Of a stretch of DNA of 64,000 bases, positions 10,372-27,229 are shown piece after piece. Numbering within the stretch: the stretch's first letter is position 1; every line of letters begins with the position of its first letter. The notes below the pieces were generated by a model. That model was given only the letters and a program-made list of their open reading frames with translations, ran no database searches and was not told the origin of the DNA. The DNA is from Nitrosopumilus sp. GTDB lineage: Archaea > Thermoproteota > Nitrososphaeria > Nitrososphaerales > Nitrosopumilaceae. Location of the stretch: assembly GCA_963667665.2 (NCBI GenBank), contig OY763927.2, positions 320,001-384,000 of the forward strand, read 5' to 3'. The position numbers and the translations under genes are program-made.

Positions 10372-10822
10372 AATTTTCAATTACCTTTGGATTTGCTTTA
10401 AGAAAAGTAATGAATTTTCTTAACTGCTTTATTGTTTTTGGATTAAGATGGTGTTCAATTCCTTCGGTGTCTTGATTTGCAGTATCATATCCAACTCCTA
10501 AGATTTCAAAAAATTCTAATAAGATTCCATGTTTTTGTCTAATTCCCTCAGCTATTTGTATTCCTTTATCTGTAAGATTAATTCCATGATATTTTTCATA
10601 TTCTAAAAACCCATTCTCGTCTAGTCTTTGAAGCATCTTAGTAACACTAGGTGCACTTACATCCATGTATCTTGAAATGTCTAGTGTAGTTGCATAACCT
10701 TTCAATTCGACTAGTTCTGATATTATTTCCAAATAATCCTCCATTCTTGTACTTGATTGGGTTCTCTCTGATTGATGAGCAGCTTTAATGGAATCCAATC
10801 TTTTGGAATTTTTAGGTTTCAT
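10358..10822 (-). CDS. mntR: DtxR/MntR metal-dependent repressor
   Basis: MEDYLE, SAPSVTKML, KHGILLEFF, EGIEHH. Confidence 0.9.
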   Translation of the reverse strand: MKPKNSKRLDSIKAAHQSERTQSSTRMEDYLEIISELVELKGYATTLDISRYMDVSAPSVTKMLQRLDENGFLEYEKYHGINLTDKGIQIAEGIRQKHGILLEFFEILGVGYDTANQDTEGIEHHLNPKTIKQLRKFITFLKANPKVIENFKNL

Positions 10823-10956
10823 GTAATCTTTGTATCTAAATCAAATCTAGTATAATTGGATTCTCTTCTGTTGATTTTAGTTACTCTTTGTTGACTTGGA
10901 TGTTACAGTAATTGATCTTTGAATCTTAACTAACTTCTTCTAAATCATAGGCTGGA

Positions 10957-11307
10957 ATGGTTGATCCCTTAAAGGTACGACTTGAAAAATTACAAAAATC
11001 TGCTGAATCAGCTAAACGCAGAGCAAATTTGTACACAGATGTGGCTAAAATGAATGAAGGACCTAATACTAGTTCGTTAGGTGCTCTTCAGAAAGCTTCT
11101 GCACCTGGTAAAAAACTTCAAAAAATTGGATTTTTGATGTTATGGGTTCCTGAACCTACTGGTGTTACTTGTGCAGTAGGCGCTCCGTTGATAGTTGCAG
11201 GTAGATATCTTGACAAAAAATACAATGGTGCCACTATTCATGATATTGGTCATGAGACAAAACATGCCTTTACATCAATACGTGATTTTAAGAATTTTAT
11301 AATATAA
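10957..11307 (+). CDS. Hypothetical protein with hydrophobic hairpin
   Basis: 116-aa ORF; PEPTGVTCAVGAPLIVAG. Confidence 0.6.
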   Translation: MVDPLKVRLEKLQKSAESAKRRANLYTDVAKMNEGPNTSSLGALQKASAPGKKLQKIGFLMLWVPEPTGVTCAVGAPLIVAGRYLDKKYNGATIHDIGHETKHAFTSIRDFKNFII

Positions 11308-11344
11308 CACTATTAGTTTTTAAAATATCTATTACAGACTTTTC

Positions 11345-11616
11345 ATTCCTACTACTGCCCTAAAGCAGGGTAATAGATAGGGTAATAAGAAAAAATTTGT
11401 TTTTAGTCATGGCGGTATAGCTCTATCCGTGCCTAGCTTTTGAGCTATTGTAGAGCTACATTTGTAATTCTAGTCGTGGAATGTAGAGCTACAATGGAGC
11501 TACATAGTGCCCTACTAATCCCTGCTAAACAAAAAGGCAGAGATGTATGCACTGTCAAATATCTATTAAAAAAATAACAGTGCGTAGCTTTTCTGTTATA
11601 GTATAGAGGTAGGAAT
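11345..11616. repeat. Non-coding cluster of GAGCTA/TAGCT direct and inverted repeats inside nested short inverted repeats
   Basis: TGTAGAGCTACA at 11449 and 11482; GGAGCTACA 11496; ATTCCTAC 11345 / GTAGGAAT 11609; AGCAGGG 11364 / CCCTGCT 11520. Confidence 0.6.
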
Positions 11617-11665
11617 TAGTAGAGATTAGAATTATCTAAAATACTGGATTGCATTAAAGAAAATT

Positions 11666-13213
11666 ATGAAACCTGTAATAATTATCACAATAGCGTTTGT
11701 TTTGTTAATTCCACTATCTGCTTTTTCAGATATATTTGGTGAACCAACGTTAAAGGTTAAAGATCTAGTTGTTGAAAAATATGTGTCAAATTTGTGTTGC
11801 ATGATTACTACCATGACTTTTGTTGAAGATGATATTTTATTTTTACAAAAAACTGATGGAGTGGTTCGTTTAATTCGAGATGGAGTTTTACAAGATAAAC
11901 CTGTACTTGATGTAAGTGTTGATTCAATTGGAGAAAAAGGCATGTTGGGAATTACCAGTGTTGATTCATCAGTATATCTCTATTTTACAGAAGCAGAAAA
12001 GGACGGAGGTGAATCATTAGGAAATAAAATTTACAAATATGAATGGGATGGGGATTCTTTGTTAAATCCAGTATTACTAAAAGAACTTCCTTCAAATGTT
12101 TCTCATAATGGGGGAGCAATGGTTACAGGATTGGATAATCAAGTCTATGCAGTAATTGGAGATACATTACACTATGGTCTTCTTCAAAACAAGCCTATAG
12201 AATGGTTGAAAGGAGACGATATTGATTTTAAAGATAATGGAGTAATTTTACAATTAGAAACAGAAAAACCATATTTTGCTATGGGAATTCGAAATAGTTT
12301 TGGATTAGCAATTGATCCTGTTACTGGGAATTTATGGGCAACTGAAAACGGTGATGATGATTTTGATGAAATCAATTTGATTCCAGAGAAGTTTAACAGT
12401 GGATGGATAGTCATAATGGGACCTGCAACTGAATCAGAACTTGCTAGCCTTCCAGGTTATGAAGATTATGTTTATGGTGATCCGGAATTTACTTGGGAAG
12501 CAGTTGTCGCACCAACTGGATTAGATTTTGCAAAATTTCAAGAAACCAATGCTTATGATAATTCTCTTTTTGTAGGAGACTGTAATACTGGGAATCTTTA
12601 CAAATTTGAATTAAATGAAAATAGAGATGGTTTTGAATTTACTAGCCCATTTCTTCAAGATAATGTAATTAACTTTGATGAAAATATGGATGAAATTATC
12701 ATAGGTACTGGATTTGGGTGTATCACTGATATTGAACGAGGACCGGATGGTTTTCTTTATGTAGTATCATTAAGTGAAAGTACAATTTTTAGAATTCTTC
12801 CTACTGCAAGTGCATCTAATGTAATAGACTCGAATGGAGGAGGTTGCCTAATTGCTACTGCAACATATGGTTCAGAATTATCACCACAAATACAACAACT
12901 CAGAGAACTACGAGATAATTCATTACTAAACACAGAATCAGGAACTGCATTCATGGAATCATTTAACGAATTTTACTATTCATTTAGCCCATACATTGCA
13001 GATTTAGAGCGTGAAAATCCCGTATTCAAAGAGATAGTAAAGATTGCAATTACACCAATGATTTCATCTCTATCAATTTTGAATTATGTGAATATGGATT
13101 CAGAAGAATCAGTATTAGGATATGGAATTTCTTTGATTATACTTAATGGATTGATGTATGCTGGTATTCCTGCAAGTGTGATTGTTGTGATTAGGAATAG
13201 AAATAAGATATGA
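11666..13213 (+). CDS. PQQ-dependent sugar dehydrogenase (Asd/YliI-like beta-propeller) with CFI-box-CTERM sorting domain
   Basis: Signal peptide, GEKGMLGI, HNGG, GIRNSFG, DEIN, APTG, GPDG; C-terminal GGGCLIATATYGSE plus TM. Confidence 0.9.
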   Translation: MKPVIIITIAFVLLIPLSAFSDIFGEPTLKVKDLVVEKYVSNLCCMITTMTFVEDDILFLQKTDGVVRLIRDGVLQDKPVLDVSVDSIGEKGMLGITSVDSSVYLYFTEAEKDGGESLGNKIYKYEWDGDSLLNPVLLKELPSNVSHNGGAMVTGLDNQVYAVIGDTLHYGLLQNKPIEWLKGDDIDFKDNGVILQLETEKPYFAMGIRNSFGLAIDPVTGNLWATENGDDDFDEINLIPEKFNSGWIVIMGPATESELASLPGYEDYVYGDPEFTWEAVVAPTGLDFAKFQETNAYDNSLFVGDCNTGNLYKFELNENRDGFEFTSPFLQDNVINFDENMDEIIIGTGFGCITDIERGPDGFLYVVSLSESTIFRILPTASASNVIDSNGGGCLIATATYGSELSPQIQQLRELRDNSLLNTESGTAFMESFNEFYYSFSPYIADLERENPVFKEIVKIAITPMISSLSILNYVNMDSEESVLGYGISLIILNGLMYAGIPASVIVVIRNRNKI

Positions 13214-13229
13214 AAATCATCCATATTCA

Positions 13230-13421
13230 TTGAACGCTACTAGAGATAAAGTTAACATCAGAATAATGGTTCAGATAATACAAAAACAAGATCAGCGTAC
13301 AGGAAAATTAACTGAAGGAATTGTCAAGAGGATTCTCACTTCAAGTAATTTTCATCCTCATGGGATTAAAGTTGAATTAGAGAATGGGAAAATAGGCCGT
13401 ATTCAAAACATAGTAGAATAG
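13230..13421 (+). CDS. YwbE family protein
   Basis: QKQDQRTGKLTEGIVKRILTSSNFHPHGIKVELENGKIGR. Confidence 0.85.
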   Translation: MNATRDKVNIRIMVQIIQKQDQRTGKLTEGIVKRILTSSNFHPHGIKVELENGKIGRIQNIVE

Positions 13422-13475
13422 TCTTGTTAATTTGACATTTGGGATTTGCAATTCTAGATTTGAATAATCTATATT

Positions 13476-13516
13476 GGATTTTGTAATTCTATGTGATTAA
13501 TTGGGCTCAAATTCAT
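13476..13516 (+). repeat. Junction site copy A (GGATTTTGTAATTCTATGTGATTAATTGGGCTCAAA)
   Basis: Direct repeat with 14457-14502 and 20452-20479; lies between convergent genes. Confidence 0.85.
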
Positions 13517-14271
13517 TAATCATTTTTTACTTCGATTTTATTTTTATTAAATTTGTTGTATCCATCTTTGTTGTATCCCTCTTTGTTGTAACCTATGTGA
13601 TCATATCCAAGTCTATCATACCCCTCTTTGTTATACCCAATACTATCATATCCATCTAAGTCATACCCAATACTATCATATCCATCTAAGTCATACCCAT
13701 TACTGTCATATCCAAGTCTATCATATCCGTCTTTGTTATACCCGTCTTTGTTGTATCCGTTTTTGTTATGCCCATCTAGGTCATACCCGTCTTTGTTGTA
13801 ACCCTTTTTGTTGTATCCATTACTATCATACCCATTTTTGTTGTAACCCTTTTTGTTGTATCCATCTTTGTTGTAACCCTTTTTGTTATACCCGTCTTTA
13901 TCAAAATTTATTTTTGTATCAATGTGAATTCCATCAAGATAAAAACCATGATTATCATACCCATTTTTGTCATACCCCTTTTTGTTGTATCCATTTTTGT
14001 TGTAACCCTTTTTGTCATACCCCTTTTTGTTGTATCCATCTAGGTCATACCCATTTTTGTTGTATCCATTTTTGTTATACTCCTCTTTGTTATACCCGTC
14101 TTTATCATACCCATCTTTGTTGTAACCCTTTTTGTTGTATCCATCTTTGTTGTACCCATCTTTGTTGTAACCCTTTTTGTTATACCCGTCTTTATCATAC
14201 CCATTACAATCATACCCATCTTTGTCGTATCCAAACTTGTCAAATTTTTTAAATTTATCAAATAATCCCAT
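13516..14271 (-). CDS. GY[D/N]xx pentapeptide tandem-repeat protein (~44 units, 15-bp DNA period)
   Basis: Likely start ATG 14271 (MGLFDKFKK); GYDKD/GYNKK repeats interrupted once by GFYLDGIHIDTKINF. Confidence 0.85.
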   Translation of the reverse strand: MGLFDKFKKFDKFGYDKDGYDCNGYDKDGYNKKGYNKDGYNKDGYNKKGYNKDGYDKDGYNKEEYNKNGYNKNGYDLDGYNKKGYDKKGYNKNGYNKKGYDKNGYDNHGFYLDGIHIDTKINFDKDGYNKKGYNKDGYNKKGYNKNGYDSNGYNKKGYNKDGYDLDGHNKNGYNKDGYNKDGYDRLGYDSNGYDLDGYDSIGYDLDGYDSIGYNKEGYDRLGYDHIGYNKEGYNKDGYNKFNKNKIEVKND

Positions 14272-14456
14272 ATTATTTTCATAAATTGCTAGCAAATAAA
14301 ACCGATCATGTAATTTTGTATTATGCTCTAAAGCGTGTATGCCCAACCTTCTTGGTCGCAAAATTCTTTATAGTAAATTTCTCCTAAAGAACCTCTTGAG
14401 TTTGTTTGTGATTCTAGGTGTAACCAAGGATATACTATACTCACTCCATAGATTCA

Positions 14457-14502
14457 GGATTTTGTAATCCTCATGTGATTAATTGAGCTTGCTAAATCAT
14501 GG
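14457..14502 (+). repeat. Junction site copy B (GGATTTTGTAATCCTCATGTGATTAATTGAGCT)
   Basis: Matches copy A over ~34 bp with few differences. Confidence 0.85.
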
Positions 14503-14551
14503 GTAATTTCACACCTATTTTCATAAATATTATGAATTTCCCACATTAGGA

Positions 14552-15223
14552 ATGAGTCTATGTAATGATCCTAAATGTCCTCTAAATAGACAGGGAGTTA
14601 CTCATGAAATTCACGAATTAATTGAAAATCGACCAGTGAAAAATCCATGCAATGATCCTCGATGTGCAATGAATAGAATGGGAATGAGTCATGAGATACA
14701 TGATGGAAAACAAGTTAATGATAGTGAACCTATACAAGAAAAAACATCAAAACAATATGTTGTAGATGATGAAGATACAGAATCAACTAATGAAACTTTA
14801 CAAGAATTAGGTAAACGGGTTTACAGAGATAATCCAAATAAAATATCTAGAGAAAAAATACTTGCAGAGCGAAGAAAAAGAGGAAGACAAAAAATAGAAC
14901 AAGAAGCTCAAGAAGTCAATAGAAGACAAAAGATTAAAGAAAAAACATCTACAAAATCTGAAACGGTTTCACAAACAAGAAACAAAAAAGAAATTCCATC
15001 AGTTAATCAAATTTTACATTGCAATGATCCATATTTGACATTTAACTTGACACAAGATACAACGTGTGATGAAATTAAATCAACATACAGAATACTAAGT
15101 AAAAATTACAATGCATCTCGTGGAAGTGCTAATAGATCACAAGATGAACAAGAACGACTCACCAAGACACAAAGTAAAATAAACATTGCATATGACATCT
15201 TAAGAAAAAAACATTGTGGTTGA
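14552..15223 (+). CDS. J-domain-like protein lacking HPD, with two N-terminal CNDPxC..HEIH putative Zn repeats
   Basis: C-terminal DPYLTFNL...DEIKSTYRILSKNYNAS...KINIAYDIL follows the J-domain pattern with YNAS at the (Y)HPD position. Confidence 0.75.
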   Translation: MSLCNDPKCPLNRQGVTHEIHELIENRPVKNPCNDPRCAMNRMGMSHEIHDGKQVNDSEPIQEKTSKQYVVDDEDTESTNETLQELGKRVYRDNPNKISREKILAERRKRGRQKIEQEAQEVNRRQKIKEKTSTKSETVSQTRNKKEIPSVNQILHCNDPYLTFNLTQDTTCDEIKSTYRILSKNYNASRGSANRSQDEQERLTKTQSKINIAYDILRKKHCG

Positions 15224-17285
15224 TATGGTAGTTTTAGGAATTGATTTAGGTACTAATAGTTCTGCAGCAGCTGCAATGATTGATGGTAAAGTACAACTCA
15301 TTTCATTTTCTGATAAAAACTCTACAGATGTAAAGCCATTTTATTCTGTTGTCTCTTTTTTTGAAGATGGCAGTTGCCTCATTGGAAAGCCAGCACTGGA
15401 GCAAGCATCATACAATCCAAAAGGAACTGTGTTTAATGTCAAAAGAATGATGGGAACCGGAGAACCCATTCATGTTTTAAAGAAAAGCTATCTTCCACAA
15501 TTTATCTCAGCATTACTAATTATGGAAATGAAGATTAAAGCAGAGAAACTTTTGAATGAAACTATCACAAAGGCAGTCATTACAGTTCCAGCATATTTTA
15601 ACGATAATCAGCGTCAAGCAACGAGAGATGCTGGAAAAATCGCAGGTTTGAACGTAATTCAGGTGTTAAATGAGCCTGTCGCTGCATCAATTGCCTATGG
15701 TCTAAACAGACTAGAAGAGCCCACAAAAATTCTAGTATTTGACATGGGGGCTGGAACTTTGGATGTATCAATTTTAGAAGTTGATAATAATTTCTTTGAG
15801 GTATTATGTACTACAGGAGATACAAATCTTGGTGGAATTAATGCCGATGAAATTATTTCAGAGATGATTTTAGAAGAAATTAAAAAAATAAAACCAAATG
15901 AAACAATTGATGAACTCTCAAAGTTACAGATAATGCAGTTAGCTGAATCAATTAAAATCAGATTATCTGAAAATACAGAACTTGATTTTGTTGAAGATAT
16001 TGCATTAACTGATTCGCATATTGATTTACCAATATCAATTAGTAGAGAAAAGTTTGATTCTATGATAGAATCAATTTTAGATAAATGCAAAGTATGCATA
16101 TCTGATGCGCTAAAAGGTGCAAATCTTACTTCAGATAAAATAGATAAAGTAGTGTTAGTTGGAGGATCAGTTAAAATTCCTGCCATTAAAAAAATGGTTT
16201 CAGAATTTATTCGAGAACCAGAATCAAACATTGATTCTACATTTACTGTTGCATCAGGTGCTGCAATTCAAGGTGCAGTGTTGTCTGATGATCGAAATTT
16301 GCCTGTGATTTTTCAGAATTTAGTACTATTAAACAAAACACCATTAGATTTAGGGGAGCATGCCATAAAAAAAAGACAGGAATTTATACAATTAATGATT
16401 CCAAAGAATACTACTTATCCAACTGAATTCACTGAAGTATTTTATGTAAATAAAATTATGCAAACTGAAGTCTCAATTAGTGTTTGGCAAGGAGATTTTG
16501 AAAAGAATCCAGATTTTCCAGGTAATGTAAACATTGGACAATTTTGGTTACGTGGTTTACGTGAAGGAATAGAAAAAGAGATTGAAGTTACATACAAAAT
16601 TGATGCAGATGGAATAATTTCAGTTACTGCATATGAGATAGAAGGAAATGCCCATGATGAATTAACCATAGATAAAATGGGAAATTCAGTAATTTCACCA
16701 CCTGAACTTGAATTTGCGCACGAAGAAATCGAGAAAATTGAGAAAAAGCACAAACGGGACATTATGAGTCCATATGAAACTCCAGTTGATGATTATGAAT
16801 TTGCATCACCAAAAGTATCTGAAGAATACACCAAGGATTATGGATGGGTTTGCAATTGTTTGGCAAAAGCAATAGAGATTATCAAAACACATCATAACCA
16901 TCCAGAATATCATCCGGATTTTTTCAAGACTGCAAGATTTGAGATATATCTACAATTAGACATGCAGTATGCTTATGCATATATTCAATTGACAGGTGGA
17001 CCTGTTTACCCAATTCACATTCATAATGCTCTAAAAGAGAATTCAGAGCAAAATAATAGAATTTTGGTAGTAACATTAGTTCATGAATTACTTCATGCAA
17101 TACATCCTGATTGGGGACATAATAAAATACGTCCAGCTGAAAGAAGGCTAGCAAACTTGGCAATGTACTTTGATGCATACAGAGAGATGGAAATTAAATT
17201 TCTCAGTGGAAAAATGTCTTTGTGTAATAATACTATGACGCGAAGAGACCAAAAAGTTAGAATTCAATGCAAGAGTGAAGACTAG
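15216..17285 (+). CDS. Atypical Hsp70 fused to a C-terminal HExxH (SprT/zincin-like) metalloprotease
   Basis: GIDLGT, TVPAYFND, NEPVAA, DMGAGTLDVS, LVGGS; SBD-beta (YKIDADGIISV); C-terminal TLVHELLHAIHPDWGH. Confidence 0.85.
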   Translation: MVDMVVLGIDLGTNSSAAAAMIDGKVQLISFSDKNSTDVKPFYSVVSFFEDGSCLIGKPALEQASYNPKGTVFNVKRMMGTGEPIHVLKKSYLPQFISALLIMEMKIKAEKLLNETITKAVITVPAYFNDNQRQATRDAGKIAGLNVIQVLNEPVAASIAYGLNRLEEPTKILVFDMGAGTLDVSILEVDNNFFEVLCTTGDTNLGGINADEIISEMILEEIKKIKPNETIDELSKLQIMQLAESIKIRLSENTELDFVEDIALTDSHIDLPISISREKFDSMIESILDKCKVCISDALKGANLTSDKIDKVVLVGGSVKIPAIKKMVSEFIREPESNIDSTFTVASGAAIQGAVLSDDRNLPVIFQNLVLLNKTPLDLGEHAIKKRQEFIQLMIPKNTTYPTEFTEVFYVNKIMQTEVSISVWQGDFEKNPDFPGNVNIGQFWLRGLREGIEKEIEVTYKIDADGIISVTAYEIEGNAHDELTIDKMGNSVISPPELEFAHEEIEKIEKKHKRDIMSPYETPVDDYEFASPKVSEEYTKDYGWVCNCLAKAIEIIKTHHNHPEYHPDFFKTARFEIYLQLDMQYAYAYIQLTGGPVYPIHIHNALKENSEQNNRILVVTLVHELLHAIHPDWGHNKIRPAERRLANLAMYFDAYREMEIKFLSGKMSLCNNTMTRRDQKVRIQCKSED

Positions 17286-17287
17286 AA

Positions 17288-17911
17288 TTGAGTGGAGAAT
17301 ATCTAATTGAAATTAGAATTAGAGGAGATATTAGAGATTTATGTAAAAAATTAATCTATGATATTTTTTATAAATTTCGTGTTTCTAATGTAGCAAGTAA
17401 AAGACCAGTTCCACATATTTCATTGTTTGGTCCATTTGATTGCAAATCAATTAAACCAGTAATTCATGAAATAAAAAAAACAGGAAAAAATTATACAAAA
17501 TTAGAATACAAAGTAAGTGGCTTTGATTATTTTGAATTAAAGAAAAAATTTCTATTCATTACTACATCTACAAAGAAAAATGTACTCTATCTCAAAATTG
17601 AAGCAAGCGAAGATCTTAAAGAATTCAGACATTCATTATCTAAAAAATTACTAAAAATTACAAAATCAGTAAATATTGATAATGATTCTAAAGAAGACTT
17701 CAAATTTCATGCAACTATTGCCATGAGGGATATTGATAGAAAATTTGACCGAATATGGGATTATCTCAAAAAATACAAAATTCACAAAAATGGAACATCA
17801 TATAGAATTACTTTGCTTAGAAAAGGGAGAATTGTGTGTGAATATGACCTGTATGAGCAGAGATTTTTGAAAAGAACTCAAGCATTAAGGCGTAAACCCA
17901 GAAGGAGATAA
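17288..17911 (+). CDS. 2H phosphoesterase (2'-5' RNA ligase/LigT-like)
   Basis: Two HxS/T motifs: PHISL and FHATI. Confidence 0.8.
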   Translation: MSGEYLIEIRIRGDIRDLCKKLIYDIFYKFRVSNVASKRPVPHISLFGPFDCKSIKPVIHEIKKTGKNYTKLEYKVSGFDYFELKKKFLFITTSTKKNVLYLKIEASEDLKEFRHSLSKKLLKITKSVNIDNDSKEDFKFHATIAMRDIDRKFDRIWDYLKKYKIHKNGTSYRITLLRKGRIVCEYDLYEQRFLKRTQALRRKPRRR

Positions 17912-17927
17912 TATTTGAAAAACAAAG

Positions 17928-17951
17928 GAAATCTTAAGTTCATACAAAATT
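17928..17951 (+). promoter_or_regulatory. BRE/TATA-like promoter element duplicated at 20489-20512
   Basis: GAAATCTTAAGTTCATAcAAAATT vs GAAATCTTAAGTTCATAtAAAATT (23/24 identical); begins 34 nt upstream of GTG 17962. Confidence 0.6.
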
Positions 17952-17961
17952 CTAATTAATT

Positions 17962-18207
17962 GTGAGGCATCGTCGAAGACGAAATTATGGAAGTCGTAGA
18001 AGTTCTGGAAAAAGTTTGAAGATTTGGATTAAATTAATAATTGCAGGAATCATACTTTTCTTTGTAGGAGTTTTTTACATTACAGCAACAGGTGGTCCTA
18101 CAATTGCATCACCTGGCATGATAATTAGTCTCATTGGAGTTATTCTTGTAGTAGTAGGAGTATTATCTGGAATTGCGCGTGGCTTTAATCGAATGATGAG
18201 TGAATGA
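17962..18207 (+). CDS. Small two-TM membrane protein with Arg-rich N-terminus
   Basis: MRHRRRR followed by two hydrophobic helices; stop overlaps next start (ATGA). Confidence 0.7.
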   Translation: MRHRRRRNYGSRRSSGKSLKIWIKLIIAGIILFFVGVFYITATGGPTIASPGMIISLIGVILVVVGVLSGIARGFNRMMSE

Positions 18208-19131
18208 CTTCAGAATTTAATAGATTTTTCTCATCAAAAACTCTAGCTAGTACATACAAACCAACATTTGTAAAATGTCTTTTAGATTTAGGAGATTTTC
18301 AAAAAGATGAAGGCGAACAATGGGTAAAAAAACATGAAGATTATCTTACAGTTGATCTAAATTTCATAGCAGTAAGATTTCTTAGATATTATCATCCTTT
18401 AAAATTCAAGTTTAAATTAAAACAAGAGGCAACAGCAAAAAGAATTGTCATATATAGAATTTTAGAAGATTTTAAAGAACTTGTAGGAATAAAGACTGCT
18501 CCATCAAAGAAGACATTATGTTCAGAACATTTTTCTGAAATGCGACAAATAACAATCAAAGAGGGAATCAAACCACAAGTTCTCAAGAAATTATTAAACG
18601 ATTGTAATATCTATTCTATAAACAAAGGCTCCAACAGTATTGAGATTAAAACAGATGTTGTAAAGTTCATGAAAGAAAACAAAAAAGTTCTTGAATCTGC
18701 ATTAAATCACATGATTGCAAAATATTTAGAAAATTGTAATGCATCCCCAAATATCTCTACTGCATTAGAAGAAATTATTCCAAGAAAAAAACTTAGTGTA
18801 CCGATATTTGATACAATAATTGATTTGCAATCTTCTCGATGTTTTTATTGTAACCAGAAATTTGATAGAAAAGAGTTTGCACAAGAACATTTCATCCCTT
18901 GGAATTTCATCAGACAAACAGAACCTTACAACATCATTGCAGCGTGTACCCCCTTGTAATTCTAGTGAAAATGATCGATTGGCCAGTGAAAAATACCTTG
19001 AAAACATCATTAAACGAAACAAGACTCTGGAGAAACTCCCTATGGGGTATTCTGAAGAGTTCATGAGAAACATGTATGGTATGTGTAGAATAGAATATCA
19101 CGGAATTAGTGAGAAACTATGGGAACTGTAA
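18204..19131 (+). pseudogene. HNH endonuclease with N-terminal 'TYK' domain, +1 frameshift in C5 run at 18949-18953
   Basis: STYKPTF N-terminal motif; CFYC..EHFIPW..NIIAAC then (frame change) TPCNSS; removing one C restores CxxC. Confidence 0.8.
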
Positions 19132-19448
19132 ATCACAATAAAGCAATCAGAGACAAAATTCCTGAAATAATCCGAGAATCCGGAAAAGAATGTAATGTAA
19201 AGACATTATCAGATGAAGAATTTTTGGAGAAATTAGAAGCAAAACTACATGAAGAAGTTTCTGAATACCAAGAAAGTAAATCTCTTGAGGAATTGGCAGA
19301 TATTTTAGAAGTAATTAACAGAATTTTAGAAATTAAAGGAATTCCAAAAAAGAAACTAGAAGAGATTAGAATAATGAAAAAAGATGAGCGTGGTGGCTTT
19401 GAGGAGAATTTGTTTTTAATTGATACTGAAGAAAAGAAAAAGGGATGA
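19119..19448 (+). CDS. MazG-like nucleoside triphosphate pyrophosphohydrolase (HisE-like family)
   Basis: KAIRDKIPEII, KLHEEVSE, EELADILEV, ERGGF. Confidence 0.9.
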   Translation: MGTVNHNKAIRDKIPEIIRESGKECNVKTLSDEEFLEKLEAKLHEEVSEYQESKSLEELADILEVINRILEIKGIPKKKLEEIRIMKKDERGGFEENLFLIDTEEKKKG

Positions 19449-20434
19449 AACCATACCATACATTCAAGAGTATTTCGCACATAGTTTATCAAGAAATTAA
19501 AGATTTTATCCAATTAAATTACAAAATTCAGATTTCTGCAAAAACTTCACCAGGCCTTGAAGAATCTTTTGACATTTTATCAGAGTCTATCAAAGTTCAT
19601 TACTATAAGAAAGGAAAATTACTTTTTCAATCAAGCCCAACAAACAAAACATATGCAAATTTGGTTTCTGATATTAATAAAAAATTTTCATTAAATACAT
19701 TTGATGAAATAGAAGAAAAACCAACTGAAATTCCTTCTGATGTAAAATATTACATCGGTTGTGATGAGTCTGGTGCTGGAGAAACCTTTGGATCAATGTT
19801 TCTAGGGTGTGTTATAGTTGATGCTGATAATTTAAAAAATATTCAACAAATTTTTGATATCCAAAATATCAAGATACTTGAAGAGCATGAAATACTTGAA
19901 AAATATGATGCAATCAAAAAGTACTGTAAAATTTTTGAAAAAAAATGTGATGCATCAGAAATTGATGAAACAAGCAAAAACACGCTTCTTGATCGAAAAT
20001 ACAAAGAATTGATAAATGATGCAATTTCGGGAAAAGAAAATGTATGTGTAATAATTGATGACTATGGAATTCAAAGAGAGTTAAAATTATTTTTGGATAA
20101 CCTTCGTTCTCAAGGAAATACAGTAATTATAGAACACAAGGCTGATGAAAAATATGCAGTATGTCAAGCTGCTTCAGTAGTTGCAAGAAAAGAAAGATTT
20201 GAAGAAATGAGAAATATCAATAAAGAATTTAGTGTGCAAGATGAAACAGGGGAAAAAATTTATCCAGGATCTGGTAATGCTGGAAACCCACAAACTGCAC
20301 AATATTTAGAAGCATTCATGAATCTATATCCCGGTAAAGAACTTCCAACTTTTGTAAGAAAGAAATGGAGTAATGCAAAAAAAATATTGAAAGAAAAATC
20401 TAATCAGAAAATTTCAAGATTTTTTAAAGAATAA
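19445..20434 (+). CDS. Type 2 RNase H with N-terminal TBP-like domain (RNase HIII-like)
   Basis: VHYYKKGKLLFQ N-domain; GCDESGAGE, IIDD, KADEKYAVCQAASVVA, GSG, RKKW. Confidence 0.8.
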   Translation: MKPYHTFKSISHIVYQEIKDFIQLNYKIQISAKTSPGLEESFDILSESIKVHYYKKGKLLFQSSPTNKTYANLVSDINKKFSLNTFDEIEEKPTEIPSDVKYYIGCDESGAGETFGSMFLGCVIVDADNLKNIQQIFDIQNIKILEEHEILEKYDAIKKYCKIFEKKCDASEIDETSKNTLLDRKYKELINDAISGKENVCVIIDDYGIQRELKLFLDNLRSQGNTVIIEHKADEKYAVCQAASVVARKERFEEMRNINKEFSVQDETGEKIYPGSGNAGNPQTAQYLEAFMNLYPGKELPTFVRKKWSNAKKILKEKSNQKISRFFKE

Positions 20435-20451
20435 CTCTTTTGTTCTTTCAG

Positions 20452-20479
20452 ATGTGATTAATTGGGCTCAAAAACATGG
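20452..20479 (+). repeat. Junction site copy C (ATGTGATTAATTGGGCTCAAA)
   Basis: 21 bp identical to 13491-13511. Confidence 0.85.
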
Positions 20480-20488
20480 ATGTTAAAA

Positions 20489-20512
20489 GAAATCTTAAGT
20501 TCATATAAAATT
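20489..20512 (+). promoter_or_regulatory. Second copy of the duplicated promoter-like element
   Basis: 23/24 identity to 17928-17951; upstream of the WD40-Roc gene. Confidence 0.6.
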
Positions 20513-20532
20513 TAGAATAAAGATGAGAAATA

Positions 20533-22743
20533 ATGTCTGAACAACTAGAAAAAATTTTTACATTTCCAGATGAATTTCCACCAATAACTACAGGATTATT
20601 ACTCGATGATGGGATAATTATTACAGGTCATTATAATGGATTTGTAGTAAAATGGAAAATTGGCTCAACGAAATATGATATACTTCATGATTGTGGCGAT
20701 AAAGTAGAAACTCTATCTAAATCTCCTACAAACCAAATTTTAGTTGGTTGTAATTCGGGGTTTCTATTCCATTTTGATCTTAATAATCCTACAGATAAAA
20801 TTATAATTCAAAAAGGAACAAATACAATATCATCTCGTATTTGGAGATCTGTATGGCCAACTGATGACACAATTCTAACAACTTCTACTTACGGTGGATT
20901 AAATTTATTCAATAAAACAGATTCAAAATGGAATAATGAATTATTATCAGGTCATTATCATAGCATTTTTGGAATTACTAATAAAAATGATAGATATGTT
21001 GTTTCAGGTGATTATAAAGGAAAAATAATAATTTGGGAAAAACATGATGATGGTTACAAATCTATTGATGAAGTAAATATTCAAGGCTCTGTAGAAGATA
21101 TTTCATGGATTAAAGAAGAGTCTTTTTCAGCAATTGATAATCTTGGCCACATCAATATTTTTGAATTAGATTCTACATCTGGATTATGGAAATCAATTGT
21201 TGGAGCTGATGTAGCTACTAGTAGAGGACATTGCATACATGTTATTAACAATGGAAAAACAGTTTTTGCTGGTACTGATACCGAGCTTATTCAATTTGAT
21301 CTTGATTCCCAACAAATTCAAACAAGTAATTTAGAAAAAATTAGAAAAATTTTTTCAGAAGGCAATCGAGTTTATGTACTTTCTGTAATTGGACTCTACT
21401 CATTTGAACCAAATAAAATACAAGTGCCTGTTGAACTTGTCAAATATCAATATGCTAAAGTTAGCCTCATTGGTCACACAGGAGTAGGTAAAAGTACATT
21501 ATGCAGTTCTATTGTTACTGGTTCAACGGATAATGTCAAATCTACTTTTGGAAAAAAGATTTGGACATGGAACTTACCCGATAACAATGATGGACCTGAA
21601 CAAAGAATAATTTTTCATGATCATGGTGGTCAAGAGACAGTTCTGGGTACATTTCTCCCGTTTCTCTCAGATTCAAATATAATTTTGGTATTTTTCAAAC
21701 AAACAGATAAAACTACATTTGATAAAGCCTATGAAATTATTAACGAATTAAAATCAATAGTTACCAAAAAATCTAAAATTTATCTTGTCCAGACACACAT
21801 CGATGAAGAGATTATCGATGTTGATGAAAGCCATATAGCTCAACTTATTGAATTAGGAGAAATTGTCAATTGCTTCAAAATATCACCAAAAACGGGTGAA
21901 GGAGTAGAAGAATTTTTGAAACAATTACAGAATGAAATTGACTGGTTGGAATCTAAAACGATGGCGCAATCTGAATATGTAGAAGGTCTCATGAAAACTA
22001 TCACCGATTTATCCATATTCGATGGTACAGTTGTAAGCTTTAATTCTGTAAAAAACTCTTTTCAAGAAAAAACATCTTTGAATATAACTACTGGTCATTT
22101 GAATTTTCTTTTAACTAACTTTAGTAATCAAGGATTTATTGAATATTATCCTGATGTTTTGAAATCAGTAATTTTCAATAATGATGAGTATAATAAACTA
22201 CGAAGTAATGTACCGATTTTGGTAGATCAGGCAAATGGAATTATTTCAATAAAAGAAATTGAATCTGTCTTCAAACCTTCAACGTACTTGCAGATCTTAG
22301 ATAATGTTTATTTGAGTTATTCTATTGCGATAAAAGATAACGATGTACGAATTTTTCCTGATAAACTTAAAACTGAAGGAAGTACTGTTAAGAAACCTTA
22401 TGAAGATTTTTTGAAAAAACCTAGTCATCAATTCGAGTATCTCTTTCCATTACAAAAAATAAAATTGTATAATCTAATTGGACCCTTAATTGAATTAAAA
22501 TTAAAATGCATTGATGCGTCTAAGTTTGATGGATTATTCGCCTGGGAAACAAATGCTTGTCTTTATTACTCAATTGGAGAAGTAGGTAATTCAATTACTG
22601 GAAGAAATTCTAAGATATCTTATTTTATAGGGGGAACTGATAAAAAAATTTGTGATAGACTAAACAATGAATTTTCATCTATATTGATGCGTCTCTTTGG
22701 TCATAACATTTCTCAAGACACACAAACTAGTACATTAAACTAA
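20533..22743 (+). CDS. WD40 beta-propeller - Roc GTPase - COR-like (Roco) protein
   Basis: WD40-like blades (SGDYKGKIIIW, GHYHSI); G1 GHTGVGKS, G2 STFG, G3 DHGGQE, G4 QTHID, G5 SPKTGEG; COR-like NQGFIEYY and IFPDKL. Confidence 0.8.
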   Translation: MSEQLEKIFTFPDEFPPITTGLLLDDGIIITGHYNGFVVKWKIGSTKYDILHDCGDKVETLSKSPTNQILVGCNSGFLFHFDLNNPTDKIIIQKGTNTISSRIWRSVWPTDDTILTTSTYGGLNLFNKTDSKWNNELLSGHYHSIFGITNKNDRYVVSGDYKGKIIIWEKHDDGYKSIDEVNIQGSVEDISWIKEESFSAIDNLGHINIFELDSTSGLWKSIVGADVATSRGHCIHVINNGKTVFAGTDTELIQFDLDSQQIQTSNLEKIRKIFSEGNRVYVLSVIGLYSFEPNKIQVPVELVKYQYAKVSLIGHTGVGKSTLCSSIVTGSTDNVKSTFGKKIWTWNLPDNNDGPEQRIIFHDHGGQETVLGTFLPFLSDSNIILVFFKQTDKTTFDKAYEIINELKSIVTKKSKIYLVQTHIDEEIIDVDESHIAQLIELGEIVNCFKISPKTGEGVEEFLKQLQNEIDWLESKTMAQSEYVEGLMKTITDLSIFDGTVVSFNSVKNSFQEKTSLNITTGHLNFLLTNFSNQGFIEYYPDVLKSVIFNNDEYNKLRSNVPILVDQANGIISIKEIESVFKPSTYLQILDNVYLSYSIAIKDNDVRIFPDKLKTEGSTVKKPYEDFLKKPSHQFEYLFPLQKIKLYNLIGPLIELKLKCIDASKFDGLFAWETNACLYYSIGEVGNSITGRNSKISYFIGGTDKKICDRLNNEFSSILMRLFGHNISQDTQTSTLN

Positions 22744-22745
22744 AA

Positions 22746-23162
22746 ATGTTTGAATTTGATGTTGCACTTTCATTTGCAGGTGAGCAAAGAGTTTATGTTG
22801 AAAAAGTTGCATATTTTTTGCAAAACAAAGGACTCACTGTGTTTTATGATAAGTTTCATCAATCTCATCTGTGGGGTAAAGATTTATCGATATATCTTCA
22901 TGATGTTTTTTCTAACAAATCAAAATTTTGTATAATGTTTATTTCTAAAGAGTATATTGAAAAAGCTTGGCCTAGTCATGAAAGAGAAGCAGCGCTTCAA
23001 AAGCAAGTTGAAGTTGGAGGCGGTTATATTCTACCAGTGCGATTTGATGATACAGTGGTTCCTGGTCTTCCTGACAGTATCTCATATATTGATGCAAATA
23101 CCTACACCCCAGAAAATATTGCCAAAATGTTTTTAGAAAAATATGAGAATAAAAATACATAA
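22746..23162 (+). CDS. TIR domain protein
   Basis: FDVALSFAGEQR, VFYD, FISKEY, WPSHE (putative catalytic Glu), ILPVRFD. Confidence 0.92.
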   Translation: MFEFDVALSFAGEQRVYVEKVAYFLQNKGLTVFYDKFHQSHLWGKDLSIYLHDVFSNKSKFCIMFISKEYIEKAWPSHEREAALQKQVEVGGGYILPVRFDDTVVPGLPDSISYIDANTYTPENIAKMFLEKYENKNT

Positions 23163-23191
23163 TTTTCAATCATTATAATCAAATATCTTTA

Positions 23192-24400
23192 CTAACGAAT
23201 AATTTCCAAAATTTTCTCAGGTGGAATTTGCCCATAACTTTTTTTTAATTCATCAATGGTATGCCATTCTCCAACTTCTGCAATAATTCCATAGTTGTAG
23301 TTAGTTTTGGATAACCAGTAATGAGCACCAATATGCCTGAGTACGTGCGTAGAATGACTGAGAAAATAGTTAGTGTTTTTCCCCAAATGTTTGTAGATTT
23401 GAATTAATTTTTTTCTTATATCTATTTGAAATGCATATCTTGATTCATTTGATTCATAAATTTTATTGCAGCCTCTTGCACGAAGTAAATCAATACTTTG
23501 TTGTGTTTCTTTTTTTGTGATGTACTTTGTCCATTTTCCTCCTCTAATGTGTGATGTCTTTGATTCAATCGCAGACATAACATAGATTATTTTTTCACGG
23601 TTGTTGTATGTGGTATAGTCATTTGTCATTGTATATAGTGCACCAAATCTTGCACAAGATTCTATTCCAATCCAGAACCATCTGTAAATATCAGAATCAA
23701 TTCCCCATCTTTCTTTGATAAATGAATCAGCTTGCTCTAGTTCTGTAGTTGTTAGTCTAATGTCTGCATACAGTCCATGTGATAATACTTTTTGTGACAT
23801 TATTCCCCCAACTCCTTTTCTCCATGTAATGTTGTAAAATCCACAAAAGTCTCTTACTGCTTGTACTCTGGTATATACAACCCACTTTATTCCGTTAGGT
23901 CTGTTTCCTCTGGGATCTCTTGTATCTTTTTTTTGTGAACATAGTTGTGCAAAACTTCGCATAATTTTTTCAGTATTTCTTTGAGAGACTAACAAATCTG
24001 ATGGATGAATTGAACACGTATTGCATACTGATTCTAGTGAACGTAGACGAACTTTCCAGTTTCTTAGTGGTTCGACTCCCTTTCGAGTTATCAGATCATC
24101 TATCCATTCGGCAACTAGTATCTCTGATGTTATTGGATGATCTTTGTTGAATTGACGGAACTTTTTCTCTGATGGAATCTTTGGTAGAATGAATCTTCCT
24201 GTGTTAGTTTTCTCTAACTTCATTCTTTTCATATAGTTGTAGACTGTTTTTCTACACACTCCGAGCATCTTTGCTACCTCTGTCATTGGTATGGGATATG
24301 GTCTGGAACCTGTACCGTGAACCATATCTGATATCTCTGTAATTATCTGAGATTCAGATGCTCTCTTGCCGTGCAGGCGCATTCTGGGAACAAACTTCAC
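23192..24400 (-). CDS. Tyrosine recombinase/integrase with N-terminal HTH
   Basis: SCARF (R), ESKT (K), HVLRH (HxxR), GEW (W), KKSYG (Y); HTH MTEVAKMLGVCRKTVYNY; GAGGTG SD upstream of the GTG start. Confidence 0.88.
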   Translation of the reverse strand: MKFVPRMRLHGKRASESQIITEISDMVHGTGSRPYPIPMTEVAKMLGVCRKTVYNYMKRMKLEKTNTGRFILPKIPSEKKFRQFNKDHPITSEILVAEWIDDLITRKGVEPLRNWKVRLRSLESVCNTCSIHPSDLLVSQRNTEKIMRSFAQLCSQKKDTRDPRGNRPNGIKWVVYTRVQAVRDFCGFYNITWRKGVGGIMSQKVLSHGLYADIRLTTTELEQADSFIKERWGIDSDIYRWFWIGIESCARFGALYTMTNDYTTYNNREKIIYVMSAIESKTSHIRGGKWTKYITKKETQQSIDLLRARGCNKIYESNESRYAFQIDIRKKLIQIYKHLGKNTNYFLSHSTHVLRHIGAHYWLSKTNYNYGIIAEVGEWHTIDELKKSYGQIPPEKILEIIR

Positions 24401-24527
24401 CTACTTACACCTCAGGCCAAGCCTCGAATTTTTTTTAGAAATTACTTTGTGTGTGCTATTTTCTAGAACCAACGAAAGTTAGTACCCAAATTAACGTATT
24501 TTAAAAGGACTTGAGATAAATTAACTT

Positions 24528-25019
24528 ATGACTACTAGAACCCAGGTAATCCTTCCTATTTTCATTGCAGCTGTAATAGTTGGAGTTGTTGGTTTGGCTA
24601 CTCTTCCAAGTGATATTAAATTAGAATCTGTTGAATTTCCTGTGGGCATCATCAAAGTTGATGATGTTCCTCTTCAAGTACAGATTGCTGATACTGAACC
24701 TAGACGCGTTCGTGGATTAATGTTTCAAGATCAACTTCCTTTAGATCAGGGAATGATCTTTGTGTTTCAACAATCTGGTCTTCATTCTCTATGGATGCTT
24801 AACATGCAATTCTCTCTTGATATGATTTGGTTTGATCAAGACGGAAAAGTTGTGCATATTGAAAAAGATGTTCCACCATGTAAAAATGCATTAGAAATTA
24901 TAACCTGTCAAAGTATTATTCCTGAAGGTGAATCAGTTTATGTTCTTGAGGTTACTTCAGGATTTGTTGAAGAAAATAACATTACAAAAGATTCAATTTT
25001 GAGTATTATCTCCATTTAG
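24528..25019 (+). CDS. DUF192 domain protein
   Basis: RGLMF, GMIFVF, LWMLNMQFSLDMIW, YVLEV; N-terminal TM. Confidence 0.9.
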   Translation: MTTRTQVILPIFIAAVIVGVVGLATLPSDIKLESVEFPVGIIKVDDVPLQVQIADTEPRRVRGLMFQDQLPLDQGMIFVFQQSGLHSLWMLNMQFSLDMIWFDQDGKVVHIEKDVPPCKNALEIITCQSIIPEGESVYVLEVTSGFVEENNITKDSILSIISI

Positions 25020-25060
25020 AATTGCAAAAACTTATCATAGAATGATAAAATCTGTATTTT

Positions 25061-25693
25061 ATGAACAAGTTGATTTTAATTTTCGTTATTGTTGGTATTG
25101 CAGTAATAATTTCTGCCTCATTGCTTTTAATTTCTGAAAACCCATCAGTTCCTCAATCAAAACCAATCTATGAAGTGGGTTTTACTTTTAATGATGTTGA
25201 CAAAATTAAAAAATCTCTGTCAACACAAAAAATTTTCATGTCTTCTCCAATCGAAATCACTGATCATACTATAGGTAAATATTGTCCCTCCTTTGCCGAT
25301 ATTCAAAACCCCATTAATCATTGTGCTACTACTGTTATCACAGACATTAATGGAAACTCTCTCGGAAATATCAACATGGGTGGAACTACTGATGGCCCAA
25401 TTATGGCATTAGCCATTATTGACTCATCTCCATTTTTAGATTCAAAACAAGATACAGTTAACTATGTTTTTCAAACAATGATTGAAACCTTGGTGTGTGA
25501 TTGCTGGGAAGAAAAACAGCCTGGAGGCTTTGAATCAGTTAGTGCATGGCTAGATGTTGCTGCAGAAAAATATGCTGAATCTCCTCAAAGTACACTCACA
25601 TCAAAAATTGAAGGCCTAGAAAATATGAAAGTGATTTTGAAGATAAAATCTACAAATGAAAATTATCTATGGACATTAATTGTACTCAAGTAA
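25061..25693 (+). CDS. Conserved thaumarchaeal membrane-anchored hypothetical protein
   Basis: N-terminal TM, LVCDCW motif. Confidence 0.7.
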   Translation: MNKLILIFVIVGIAVIISASLLLISENPSVPQSKPIYEVGFTFNDVDKIKKSLSTQKIFMSSPIEITDHTIGKYCPSFADIQNPINHCATTVITDINGNSLGNINMGGTTDGPIMALAIIDSSPFLDSKQDTVNYVFQTMIETLVCDCWEEKQPGGFESVSAWLDVAAEKYAESPQSTLTSKIEGLENMKVILKIKSTNENYLWTLIVLK

Positions 25694-25871
25694 GTCTAAT
25701 TAGACATCACAAAGTGTTAGTAATAACGTAACAAAATCTGCCAAAATTGATGGTTTACCAATATGTTTCGAGCCTAAAATGTTTTTCAATCTAGTAGATG
25801 TATAGAGGATTTTTCTCTCTTTATTGATCCAAGTTAAGTAAAAGATTCACGTTATTTTGTTGATTGTGAAA

Positions 25872-26249
25872 ATGAGTGAAATTCTACAGTTACTCAATAT
25901 TGTAAAAGAAGCATCTTGTGATATTTACCAGGACTTAGGAGCTGGATATAATGAAACTGTCTATGAAGAAGCATTAGCAGTATAGTTTAGAGCTCGAAAG
26001 CTAAAGTACAATGTAGAAGCAAATGCAGAAATTTTCTATAAAGGTATCAAGGTCGGTATTCATAGACTTGATTTTATTGTAGAGAAGAAATTAGTTGTAG
26101 AACTAAAGGCTCAACCTAAACTAACTGCATCCCATGTAGGACAAACTATTTCATATCTGAAAACACTTAATCTACCAAATGGAATTTTAGTTAATTTTCC
26201 TTATCCAGATAAACCAAAACCTGTTTTCAAAGAAGTTAATGTGTTTTAA
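25872..26249 (+). pseudogene. GxxExxY protein (PD-(D/E)xK-like) with in-frame TAG at 25983
   Basis: Manual translation: LGAGYNETVYEEALAV*F...RLDFIVEKKLVVELKA...QTISYLK...GILVNF. Confidence 0.85.
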
Positions 26250-26278
26250 TTAATTCTAAATGTACAGGTTATTATGTT

Positions 26279-26548
26279 CTATTTTAATGGAAGAGTATCA
26301 ACAATGTGAATTTGTTTTTCTTTCATGAAATATGCACATCGCAAAACGACGTCTTCTTCTTCAACATAGACTTTGAAACCTTCTCCACAAGAATAGTAAT
26401 TCATTGACCCCATAGATCTTGTCATGTTTCTAATAGCTTCTATCTCTCTTACGTAATACGCAAAAGTTTTTCCGTCTTCTGAACCACGTGCTCGGATCCA
26501 GCTGATAATTTGTGAACTGATGTAAACAATCCAACCATTAGATGACAT
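26279..26548 (-). CDS. Hypothetical protein (89 aa)
   Basis: ORF only, inside the insert. Confidence 0.45.
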   Translation of the reverse strand: MSSNGWIVYISSQIISWIRARGSEDGKTFAYYVREIEAIRNMTRSMGSMNYYSCGEGFKVYVEEEDVVLRCAYFMKEKQIHIVDTLPLK

Positions 26549-26655
26549 GCAAATTTCTTGACGTTAAGTTCCAGTTAAACGTTATGTGTAATCACGCCAA
26601 GTGTATTGACATTTCTGACAACGATAAAATCTGTTTGTAGTAAGATAGTAAGTGT

Positions 26656-26787
26656 TTAGGCGTCTAGAATTTCTTTTAGATCCCCAGTGTATTTCATTGG
26701 AGTTATGGTGCCATTTCTGACTTTTTCTTTGTATGCTTGCATAGCTTTGGTATCCTCATTTTCCCATGTTATGTTTTGTTTTTGCAT
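26656..26787 (-). CDS. Small hypothetical protein (43 aa)
   Basis: MQKQNITWENEDTKAMQAYKEKVRNGTITPMKYTGDLKEILDA*; TATA-like TTATAT upstream on the minus strand. Confidence 0.45.
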   Translation of the reverse strand: MQKQNITWENEDTKAMQAYKEKVRNGTITPMKYTGDLKEILDA

Positions 26788-26956
26788 ATTAAATCGAATG
26801 CCATATAGCATATAATGATTTAGATTTTAAAATCAGTGAATCTGATCAGATTTCCTTAGGTAGTTCTAGTCGTAAAGTGGTAAAGTGTACTTAAAGAAAT
26901 CCATAAATTCTTAATTTCAGGATCAACAGTTACTTCGATGCTCTGTTACTCTATTA

Positions 26957-27015
26957 CTACTTAGGCGTTAAGACTACTTAGACACCTAAGTGGTAAGACT
27001 ACTTAGATACCTAAG
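26957..27015. repeat. Tandem palindromic repeats TAAGACTACTTAGAYACCTAAG x2 plus a partial CTACTTAG
   Basis: Copies at 26969-26990 and 26994-27015, each with a CTTAG-N4-CTAAG dyad. Confidence 0.8.
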
Positions 27016-27229
27016 AAAAAAGTGGAAGTTTGCCTCTTTGCTAGCTGAGGGGACCTCACTAGAACATCTCTTTGAGTACGTGATTATAATATTTACAAAT
27101 TTGAGGCTCAATGTCCTGGGTTGGCAATATGTTTTGAGTGTAAATTATTCTTCAATCTAACTAATCCAAATTATTATTATTAACAAACTGTATCTAGTAA
27201 GTCTAATTATATACAACAAAATTCTTTGA

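Follow-up and report, generated by a model that had tools for sequence, protein, structure and literature searches.

Fossils of a nuclease gene end recur at module joints of a Nitrosopumilus defence island that carries a divergent tyrosine recombinase

In dif modules on Acinetobacter plasmids and other Xer-exploiting elements, modules are bounded by a short recombination site and the recombinase is unlinked, while the 'minimal mobile elements' of Neisseria are hot-spot islands filled by homologous exchange between conserved flanks. Among archaea, integrated elements of thaumarchaea have att sites of 8-26 bp (median 17) according to a published survey (Krupovic et al. 2019, PMC6563490), and integrons have also been reported (Ghaly et al., bioRxiv 10.1101/2022.02.06.479319). 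Here we analyse a defence island in a 64,000-nucleotide stretch of a Nitrosopumilus sp. genome (hereafter, the window: contig OY763927.2 of assembly GCA_963667665.2, positions 320,001 to 384,000 of the forward strand), in which a short direct repeat occurs three times (copies A, B and C) at joints between gene modules. An earlier note on this DNA had read the repeats as tandem att or integron-like sites of a tyrosine recombinase encoded in the same island. According to our sequence comparisons, each repeat is a fossil, 45-80 bp long, derived from the 3' coding end of a gene for a secreted, SNase-like nuclease. We further propose, with a probability of about 0.5, that recombination among related islands left the repeats behind as joints of shared homology.

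The repeats are real, non-random and specific to this locus. All three copies lie on the + strand, where the earlier note had placed them, and have in common a core of 17-21 bp, with arms that vary from copy to copy. The 21-mer ATGTGATTAATTGGGCTCAAA is exact in copies A (13491-13511) and C (20452-20472), and shuffled sequences yield 0.01 expected matches to it with up to three mismatches. Copy B (14457-14503) has its core at 14473-14489, with a single base change within the 17-mer, and reads TGA where the remaining copies have TGG; copies A and B are identical in 30 of 33 columns, with one gap (13476-13507 versus 14457-14489). A search of the entire 1.89-Mb genome with the 17-mer (one R, at most one mismatch) returned these three sites only, the reversed 17-mer used as a control returned none, and the 17-mer was absent from all 40 relatives scanned. 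An apparent fourth repeat at 13340-13369 was dismissed as a chance resemblance inside a YwbE-family open reading frame (ORF). Copy A has a long form (13441-13519) and a short form (13476-13519) and lies, as the earlier note had it, between convergent 3' ends, those of the YwbE-family ORF (13230-13421, +) and of a GY-repeat ORF (13516-14361, -). Its left part, from 13439, also resembles the flank of the copy in metagenome contig L032, and the part to the right of its core is common to contigs L031 and L034 and accompanies the GY-repeat gene.

The nature of the site as a fossil gene end, which the earlier note overlooked, emerges from its translation. Copy C (20436-20486, +) reads in frame (NS)FVLSDVINWAQKHGC followed by a stop codon, ending in ...DVINWAQKHGC. 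Copy B reads GFCNPHVIN, a stop codon, AC and a second stop codon; copy A reads IGFCNSM and a stop codon and then, after the loss of 1 nt, YVINWAQIH and a stop codon. Intact genes of 181-184 aa in four relatives terminate in ...RFCDSSEFASDPWAQKHGC and a stop codon, and the element aligns with the final ~60 nt of these genes and is 9 nt shorter than they are. The Pfam cut-off for SNase (PF00565, 21 bits) is passed by three of the four family members (36.6, 22.2 and 21.7 bits), the member in genome G055 falling below it with 16 bits; the fossils themselves are too short for SNase scoring, and their parent was assigned through these aligned relatives. The clue to the parent gene came from G055, which has its intact SNase-like gene at the same locus: positions 20472-20517 of the window match, at 91% identity, the end of that gene together with the spacer that precedes a dehydrogenase gene. 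No upstream ORF was found at any instance inspected (window copies, metagenome contigs and genus genomes), and all copies are therefore fossils.

The fossils are of unequal length, those of copy A and L032 extending ~35 nt further leftward. A decayed fourth fossil of the same gene-end region, 87% identical over 53 nt to the flank of the L032 copy, lies at 29500-29575 (+) in a non-coding gap outside the island, 5 kb to its right, and a core region of genome G095 holds an independent relic of the nuclease family. The idea that the G095 relic shares the left boundary of the element was rejected, since the similarity continues a few bases further, as in ordinary gene decay. In metagenome contig L033, two copies 405 nt apart (680-1104) flank two ORFs, one of 55 aa with an Excalibur calcium-binding motif and one of 64 aa encoding a membrane protein. 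Because the Excalibur domain comes after the ...WAQKHGC motif in longer nuclease relatives, the first of these two copies resembles an internal piece of a longer, frameshifted gene.

The existence of such relics (in G095 and at 29500 of the window) could be taken to mean that three full-length nuclease paralogues once stood in the island and that each decayed independently to its tail. Against this, all copies share the derived form, 9 nt shorter than the intact genes, together with an identical core; three separate deletions sparing the same ~50 nt are unlikely; the same fossil stands in other flanks elsewhere; and intact short-form paralogues were found in none of 151 genomes. We therefore consider independent decay highly improbable.

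The distribution of the element was analysed by exact words and by a profile built from eight copies. The exact 20-mer was found in five metagenome contigs, which are short, and in none of the species-representative genomes, a collection that may omit the genome of the window itself. In 151 genus genomes, the profile detected free-standing copies in three species (G102, G103 and G094), the remaining matches being intact nuclease gene ends and one ordinary relic; outside the genus, in 150 genomes that represent 26 genera of the family, it found none at E up to 1e-5. In viral contigs the 17-mer had four matches, three of them without further similarity, and all four were treated as chance, the one in contig L036 lying inside an unrelated 303-aa ORF. 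In this 52-kb viral contig (L036:5844-6755), the 17-mer is read in frame (...KDVINWAKKNG...) near the N-terminus and 36 of 40 nt are shared with copy C.

Across the window, contigs L031-L035 and genomes G102, G103 and G094, the same core has different neighbours on either side. In the window, copy A is flanked by the YwbE-family gene and the convergent GY-repeat gene, copy B by the GY-repeat gene and a J-Hsp70 gene pair, and copy C by an RNase gene and a Roc gene. In L031 and L034, a 70-aa ORF lies to the left and the GY-repeat gene to the right; in L033, the two copies surround the Excalibur fragment and the small membrane ORF, with the RNase gene to the right; in L035, an HNH gene whose stop codon falls within the element lies to the left and a 59-aa ORF to the right. 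G102 has the RNase gene to the left, as at copy C, and 1.2 kb of non-coding DNA to the right; G103, at the same hot spot as the window, has the contig end to the left and a dehydrogenase tail to the right; and in G094 the element lies between a small ORF and a convergent leucyl-tRNA synthetase gene. Identity to the window is 88% for the GY part (L031), 94-95% for the RNase part (L031 and L033) and 85% for the HNH part (L035). The earlier note had suggested scanning relatives for the 21-bp core: its copies do flank variable modules, as anticipated there, but they do not cluster near the recombinase family (none of 26 loci).

Strain variants were sought by comparing contigs of four public runs with positions 10000-26000 of the window; ongoing excision is not visible in contigs, and the uncovered island parts in runs X5 and X6 are uninformative. 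The window form is present in the sponge-metagenome runs X2 and X3. The junction between the left side of A and the right side of C, which the earlier note had proposed to look for as a trace of excision, was recovered in two runs: a second form in X3 follows the window to 13466, continues with 44 letters of the C side (20462-20505) and then with ~2.1 kb unlike the window, and in X5 position 13487 is joined to 20450 with three other letters between. In X5, 430 other letters also separate the Hsp70 stop codon from the right border of the island, and the RNase stop codon is joined to the right border; X6 contains the empty site and, in addition, the HNH gene end followed by the element. Some joints, from 17278 to 24390 and from 20434 to 24457, have no copy.

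Homologous modules also occur without the element. The J-Hsp70 pair stands alone in G054 (80% identity), with no upstream copy and with similarity starting at 14526, and the RNase gene is found alone in G041 and G008 (~80% identity). The modules flanked by repeats are separately present or absent in relatives, and the B-C segment is not one cassette. The earlier interpretation is partly supported in this respect: the repeats lie at joints of separately varying modules, though not at every joint.

The spacing of the element from neighbouring genes raises the question of a function in cis, as a promoter element or operator of the downstream gene or as a 3'-end or termination signal of the upstream gene, that would make it travel with genes. 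A TTCATA box lies 47 nt (B) and 48 nt (C) from the start of the core, and the start codon 79 nt (B) and 81 nt (C) from it; the spacer that follows C shares 91% identity with the promoter region of the G055 dehydrogenase gene, a same-strand gene precedes most copies, and the core contains the palindrome ATTAAT. However, copy A and the copies in L031, L034 and G094 face a convergent gene, so that there is no downstream gene to control, the homologous modules in G054, G041 and G008 do without the element, and the promoter next to B is part of the J module, not of the element. There is also no T-run typical of archaeal termination, and a search of 9000-27000 against Rfam gave a sub-threshold microRNA match only, with no known RNA family. 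A cis role is accordingly unlikely.

The island is one insertion of 13.2 kb (11326-24498) with an 8-bp duplication. In a comparison of window positions 8000-27900 with 60 genus genomes, the left flank was conserved to ~11326 and the right flank from ~24499, in agreement with the limits of 11340-24480 in the earlier note. Six genomes carry the empty site, in which a 116-aa gene and a DUF192 gene are 38-39 bp apart and the spacer reads ...TAGTTTTTAAAAGGACTGAG...; in the window this spacer is split, with TTTTAAAA on each side. The left copy of TTTTAAAA (11318-11325) follows the stop codon (11305-11307) of the conserved 116-aa gene, and the right copy (24499-24506) lies 106 nt upstream of the integrase start. 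Both hallmarks of an integrated element were thus found, the site being empty in relatives and a direct repeat standing at each border. Besides TTTTAAAA, there is no direct or inverted repeat between the island ends, and there is no tRNA gene in the window.

Five other genomes carry different cargo at the same place. The cargo of G016 comprises methyltransferase pieces and a nucleotidyltransferase-like ORF (both labelled by eye) and a frameshifted recombinase homologue; G018 and G055 retain a remnant of the recombinase 5' end, in G055 together with the intact SNase-like gene and then the dehydrogenase gene. In G010 there is a 102-bp scar containing the right-end sequence of the island. The non-coding left arm of the island (11326-11392, +) is 78% identical over 76 nt to C1:1039851-1039926 in the same genome. 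This second left-arm copy begins at TTTTAAAA beside a 748-aa restriction-modification-like ORF, and the locus may be a second element of the same family minus the integrase. By eye, the stretch before C1:1039851 resembles a tRNA 3' end; ARAGORN called none in C1:1039501-1040000.

The integrase of the island is a 402-aa helix-turn-helix (HTH) protein (23192-24400, -) that the earlier note had rightly labelled a tyrosine recombinase. Searches of Pfam, NCBIfam, PHROGs and PDB sequences matched this ORF to HTH families only, and none of its 215 homologues of ~400 aa, which belong to the same archaeal family, is annotated as an integrase, 'HTH domain protein' being the most specific name given. An AlphaFold model based on 29 homologues (pLDDT 80) shows a tyrosine-recombinase fold, with two domains as in Cre, Xer and lambda integrase: all PDB matches listed by Foldseek are tyrosine recombinases (top: Cre, XerA, Tn1549 Int and XerH), the best E among them being 2.3e-4, with a probability of 1.00 and TM scores of 0.34-0.47. 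In the 29 homologues, R251, K281, H352, W379 and Y389 are invariant and R355 is at least 90% conserved; the catalytic roles (R-K-H-R-(H/W)-Y) were assigned by eye, without structural superposition. PF00589 misses the protein and gives 23.8 bits, below the cut-off, to a 51% identical fragment in the same genome. Two fragments homologous to the recombinase, C1:1519629-1520315 (aa 6-230, 49%) and C1:225788-226156 (aa 279-401, 51%), lie 1.3 Mb apart.

The junction of this recombinase family is, as far as the compared loci indicate, the TTTTAAAA border. Of 19 homologue loci, 9 have the word upstream of the start codon, at a distance of 98-114 nt, versus 40 of 4,240 background windows, and most of the remaining loci have a close variant at the same place. 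In L078 a 15-nt direct repeat runs across TTTTAAAA, its copies 7.5 kb apart, and in L079 a second TTTTTAAAAT, which matches the left end of the island in the window, lies 6.4 kb downstream of the integrase. Since only one of 20 integrase loci contains a tRNA gene (L094, ~7 kb from the integrase), this is not a tRNA-targeting family. The island thus resembles published thaumarchaeal integrated elements in its insertion between conserved genes with an empty site in relatives, in its very short flanking direct repeats (8 bp, versus 8-26 bp), in the position of the integrase at one end and in its defence-type cargo, and differs from them in that Pfam Phage_integrase misses its integrase (PMC6563490); a word search of four supplement files of that survey did not find TTTTAAAA.

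These observations bear directly on the proposal that the neighbouring recombinase uses the repeats as tandem att or integron-like sites to stack cassettes. In its favour are the tyrosine-recombinase fold of the protein, its place in the same island and the partition of the island by direct repeats. However, 2.7 kb separate the recombinase from copy C, no further copy lies past it, and the repeat is absent from the recombinase flank (23130-24540), from the left border region (11280-11700) and hence from both island ends. The family junction is instead TTTTAAAA, at a fixed distance from the gene, with the 15-nt direct repeat in L078 as a further instance. The repeat is also absent from all 26 homologue loci (386 kb), and G094, G102 and G103 have the element and no intact recombinase homologue. 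Nor does the repeat fold like attC: DNA folding of the three window copies, each on both strands, and of two additional copies gave z-scores from -1.34 to +0.89 relative to shuffles. This proposal, the central claim of the earlier note, is largely refuted, with very little probability left to it.

The island shares with tandem arrays that re-use one att site the direct repeats, the identical core between units and the derivation of the site from a protein-gene 3' end. In contrast to such arrays, it has no intact target gene at the array head, two of its three units lack an integrase, the single integrase present has a different junction, and the core is confined to A, B and C and is missing from the outer border and from around the integrase. 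Integrons and attC clusters without an integrase likewise have a repeated site after the 3' ends of successive units, and units that vary between strains; unlike them, the element has no attC hairpin and there is no IntI beside an attI, the units of the island have promoter-like spacers of their own, the A-B unit is inverted, and the B-C 'cassette' holds seven ORFs of separate ancestry. The integron-like platform suggested before is therefore not borne out.

What best accounts for these data, in our view, begins with a mobile element that is inserted at the TTTTAAAA word between two conserved genes, with the divergent tyrosine recombinase at its right end. The three internal repeats are paralogous copies of the short nuclease-gene-end fossil, situated at the meeting points of modules that differ in ancestry. 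Where two related islands both carry a copy, they would recombine there via the recombination of the host, swapping left and right content, so that one island ends up with several direct copies and others with a single, hybrid one. The reading of the repeats as scars and anchors is favoured by the ragged fossil lengths, the indels beside the core, the relics outside islands and the absence of a linked recombinase or an intact target gene. A parallel exists with minimal mobile elements, in which one locus between conserved genes is likewise empty or variously filled and short anchor segments are shared; the present island differs in bearing an integrase and a target-site duplication, and its internal anchor is a gene fossil.

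Several observations weigh against shared-homology joints. The identical core, 17-21 bp long, offers little length for homologous recombination. It is conserved better than its arms, as befits a functional site, and is identical in G102 and G103, which were found by the profile and not by the exact word. The contexts of B and G103 diverge directly after ...GCT, which hints at a preferred breakpoint, and copies seen together are all direct (three in the window, two in L033). The length of the core also equals the usual length of thaumarchaeal att sites in the published survey (median 17 bp; PMC6563490). Contigs, moreover, cannot reveal present-day recombination, and the other module joints have no copy, so that the repeats explain only part of the mosaic. 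We give even odds to recombination at the copies, as opposed to a dedicated enzyme or a cis function, as the explanation of their spread; host homologous recombination and a dedicated enzyme encoded elsewhere cannot be told apart from these data.

Such an enzyme is at the centre of the chief alternative, by which a nuclease-tail element of ~50 bp became a portable site-specific recombination site, its 17-21 bp core being used by a tyrosine recombinase encoded elsewhere in the genome to excise and capture modules as cassettes and to reshuffle defence modules within and between islands. The identical core with mixed arms resembles POP'/BOB' products, the copies stand in direct orientation at module borders, some strains have only one copy, and in L033 a two-ORF unit is flanked by two copies 405 nt apart. 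Candidate enzymes are not lacking either, with 16 PF00589 (Phage_integrase) matches in the genome, 11 of them over the cut-off. In the published survey, moreover, att sites have the length of this core and protein-gene 3' ends serve 14 of 68 elements (PMC6563490). On the other hand, a linked recombinase is found in none of the contexts of the element, no intact target gene with this 3' end was found in the 151 genus genomes or the five metagenome contigs, the fossil lengths are ragged with indels beside the core, and a hairpin is absent. Inspection of the alignment by eye, with no arm scan or count, gave two CATG words with one extra pair each and no convincing inverted binding arms beyond them. 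We therefore regard a portable site as possible but doubtful, and hold the same view of its use in reshuffling. Among the Phage_integrase matches, an identical-scoring pair (C1:1837351-1837800, +, and C1:1847351-1847800, -) lies exactly 10 kb apart in opposite orientation.

A similar comparison applies to dif modules, which the island resembles in having modules bounded by a short site without a linked recombinase. The 11-6-11 inverted-repeat architecture of dif was not seen on inspection of the alignment of the element by eye, which gave the two CATG words, and the dif-like reading was dropped. Thaumarchaea are also reported to lack XerA (PMC2958812).

The gene content of the island was annotated by family searches, which upheld the Hsp70, 2H phosphoesterase, RNase HII/HIII-like, Roc and TIR labels of the earlier note, found the J and HNH labels weak here and gave no support for MazG. 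The first gene (11666-13213, +) encodes a glucose/sorbosone dehydrogenase-like protein (PF07995, 110 bits) with a C-terminal membrane anchor; genome G057 holds a copy of it, 89% identical, at another place, and in run X6 several different upstream segments are joined to the dehydrogenase start codon at 11666. It is followed by the small YwbE-family gene (TIGR03833, 95.4 bits; cut-off 63.4) and by the GY-repeat gene, which consists of 15-nt periodic repeats with GYNKx pentapeptides. The GY frame is kept in L031 as a 251-aa ORF, versus 281 aa in the window, with a different number of repeats; a GY paralogue at C1:601251-601760 shows similarity confined to the repeats, with flanks unlike those in the window.

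The J-like and Hsp70-like gene pair (14552-17285, +) scores 407 bits for HSP70, with a C-terminal HELLH region in the Hsp70-like protein, and 21.9 bits for DnaJ, under the cut-off of 27.8. Downstream (17288-20434, +) are genes for a 2H phosphoesterase, an 81-aa membrane protein, an HNH protein, a 109-aa protein and the RNase HII/HIII-like protein. The HNH gene is split here into two overlapping frames of 251 and 103 aa (18204-19131); because its relative on L035 is intact in a single open frame (HNH domain, 32.6 bits), the window copy looks frameshifted. The 109-aa gene (19119-19448), previously labelled MazG, had no family match. A promoter-like spacer (20487-20532, +), similar to the junction of the SNase-like and dehydrogenase genes in G055, precedes the beta-propeller/Roc GTPase gene, which together with the TIR gene occupies 20533-23162 (+; Roc 46.7 bits, TIR_2 64.4 bits); the TIR gene also matches PADLOC PDC-S66 (59 bits). 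The promoter-like segment is repeated at 17924-17966, 20485-20527 and L024:4652-4697, upstream of two island genes and the G055 dehydrogenase gene, and in two of the three cases the first codons (GTG AGG CAT) fall within it. Elsewhere in the assembly, contig C2 (6911 bp) is a 99.1% duplicate of C1:930937-937890; its identification as an excised circle or plasmid was rejected on this ground, the contig probably being an assembly haplotig.

Little is known of how the abundant ammonia-oxidising archaea assemble their defence islands. The locus described here offers a hot spot that is empty in some species and differently filled in others, and it reveals an unannotated tyrosine-recombinase family with a very short, A/T-palindromic junction, so that annotation pipelines miss such elements. 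It also brings to light a short gene fossil that recurs at module joints across species and metagenomes. If this fossil were an active recombination site, it would represent a new gene-capture route in archaea with a new type of site, and would be an archaeal equivalent of attC clusters that lack an integrase or of dif modules on plasmids. Should it be no more than a scar, it would remain a useful marker for following the assembly of these islands.

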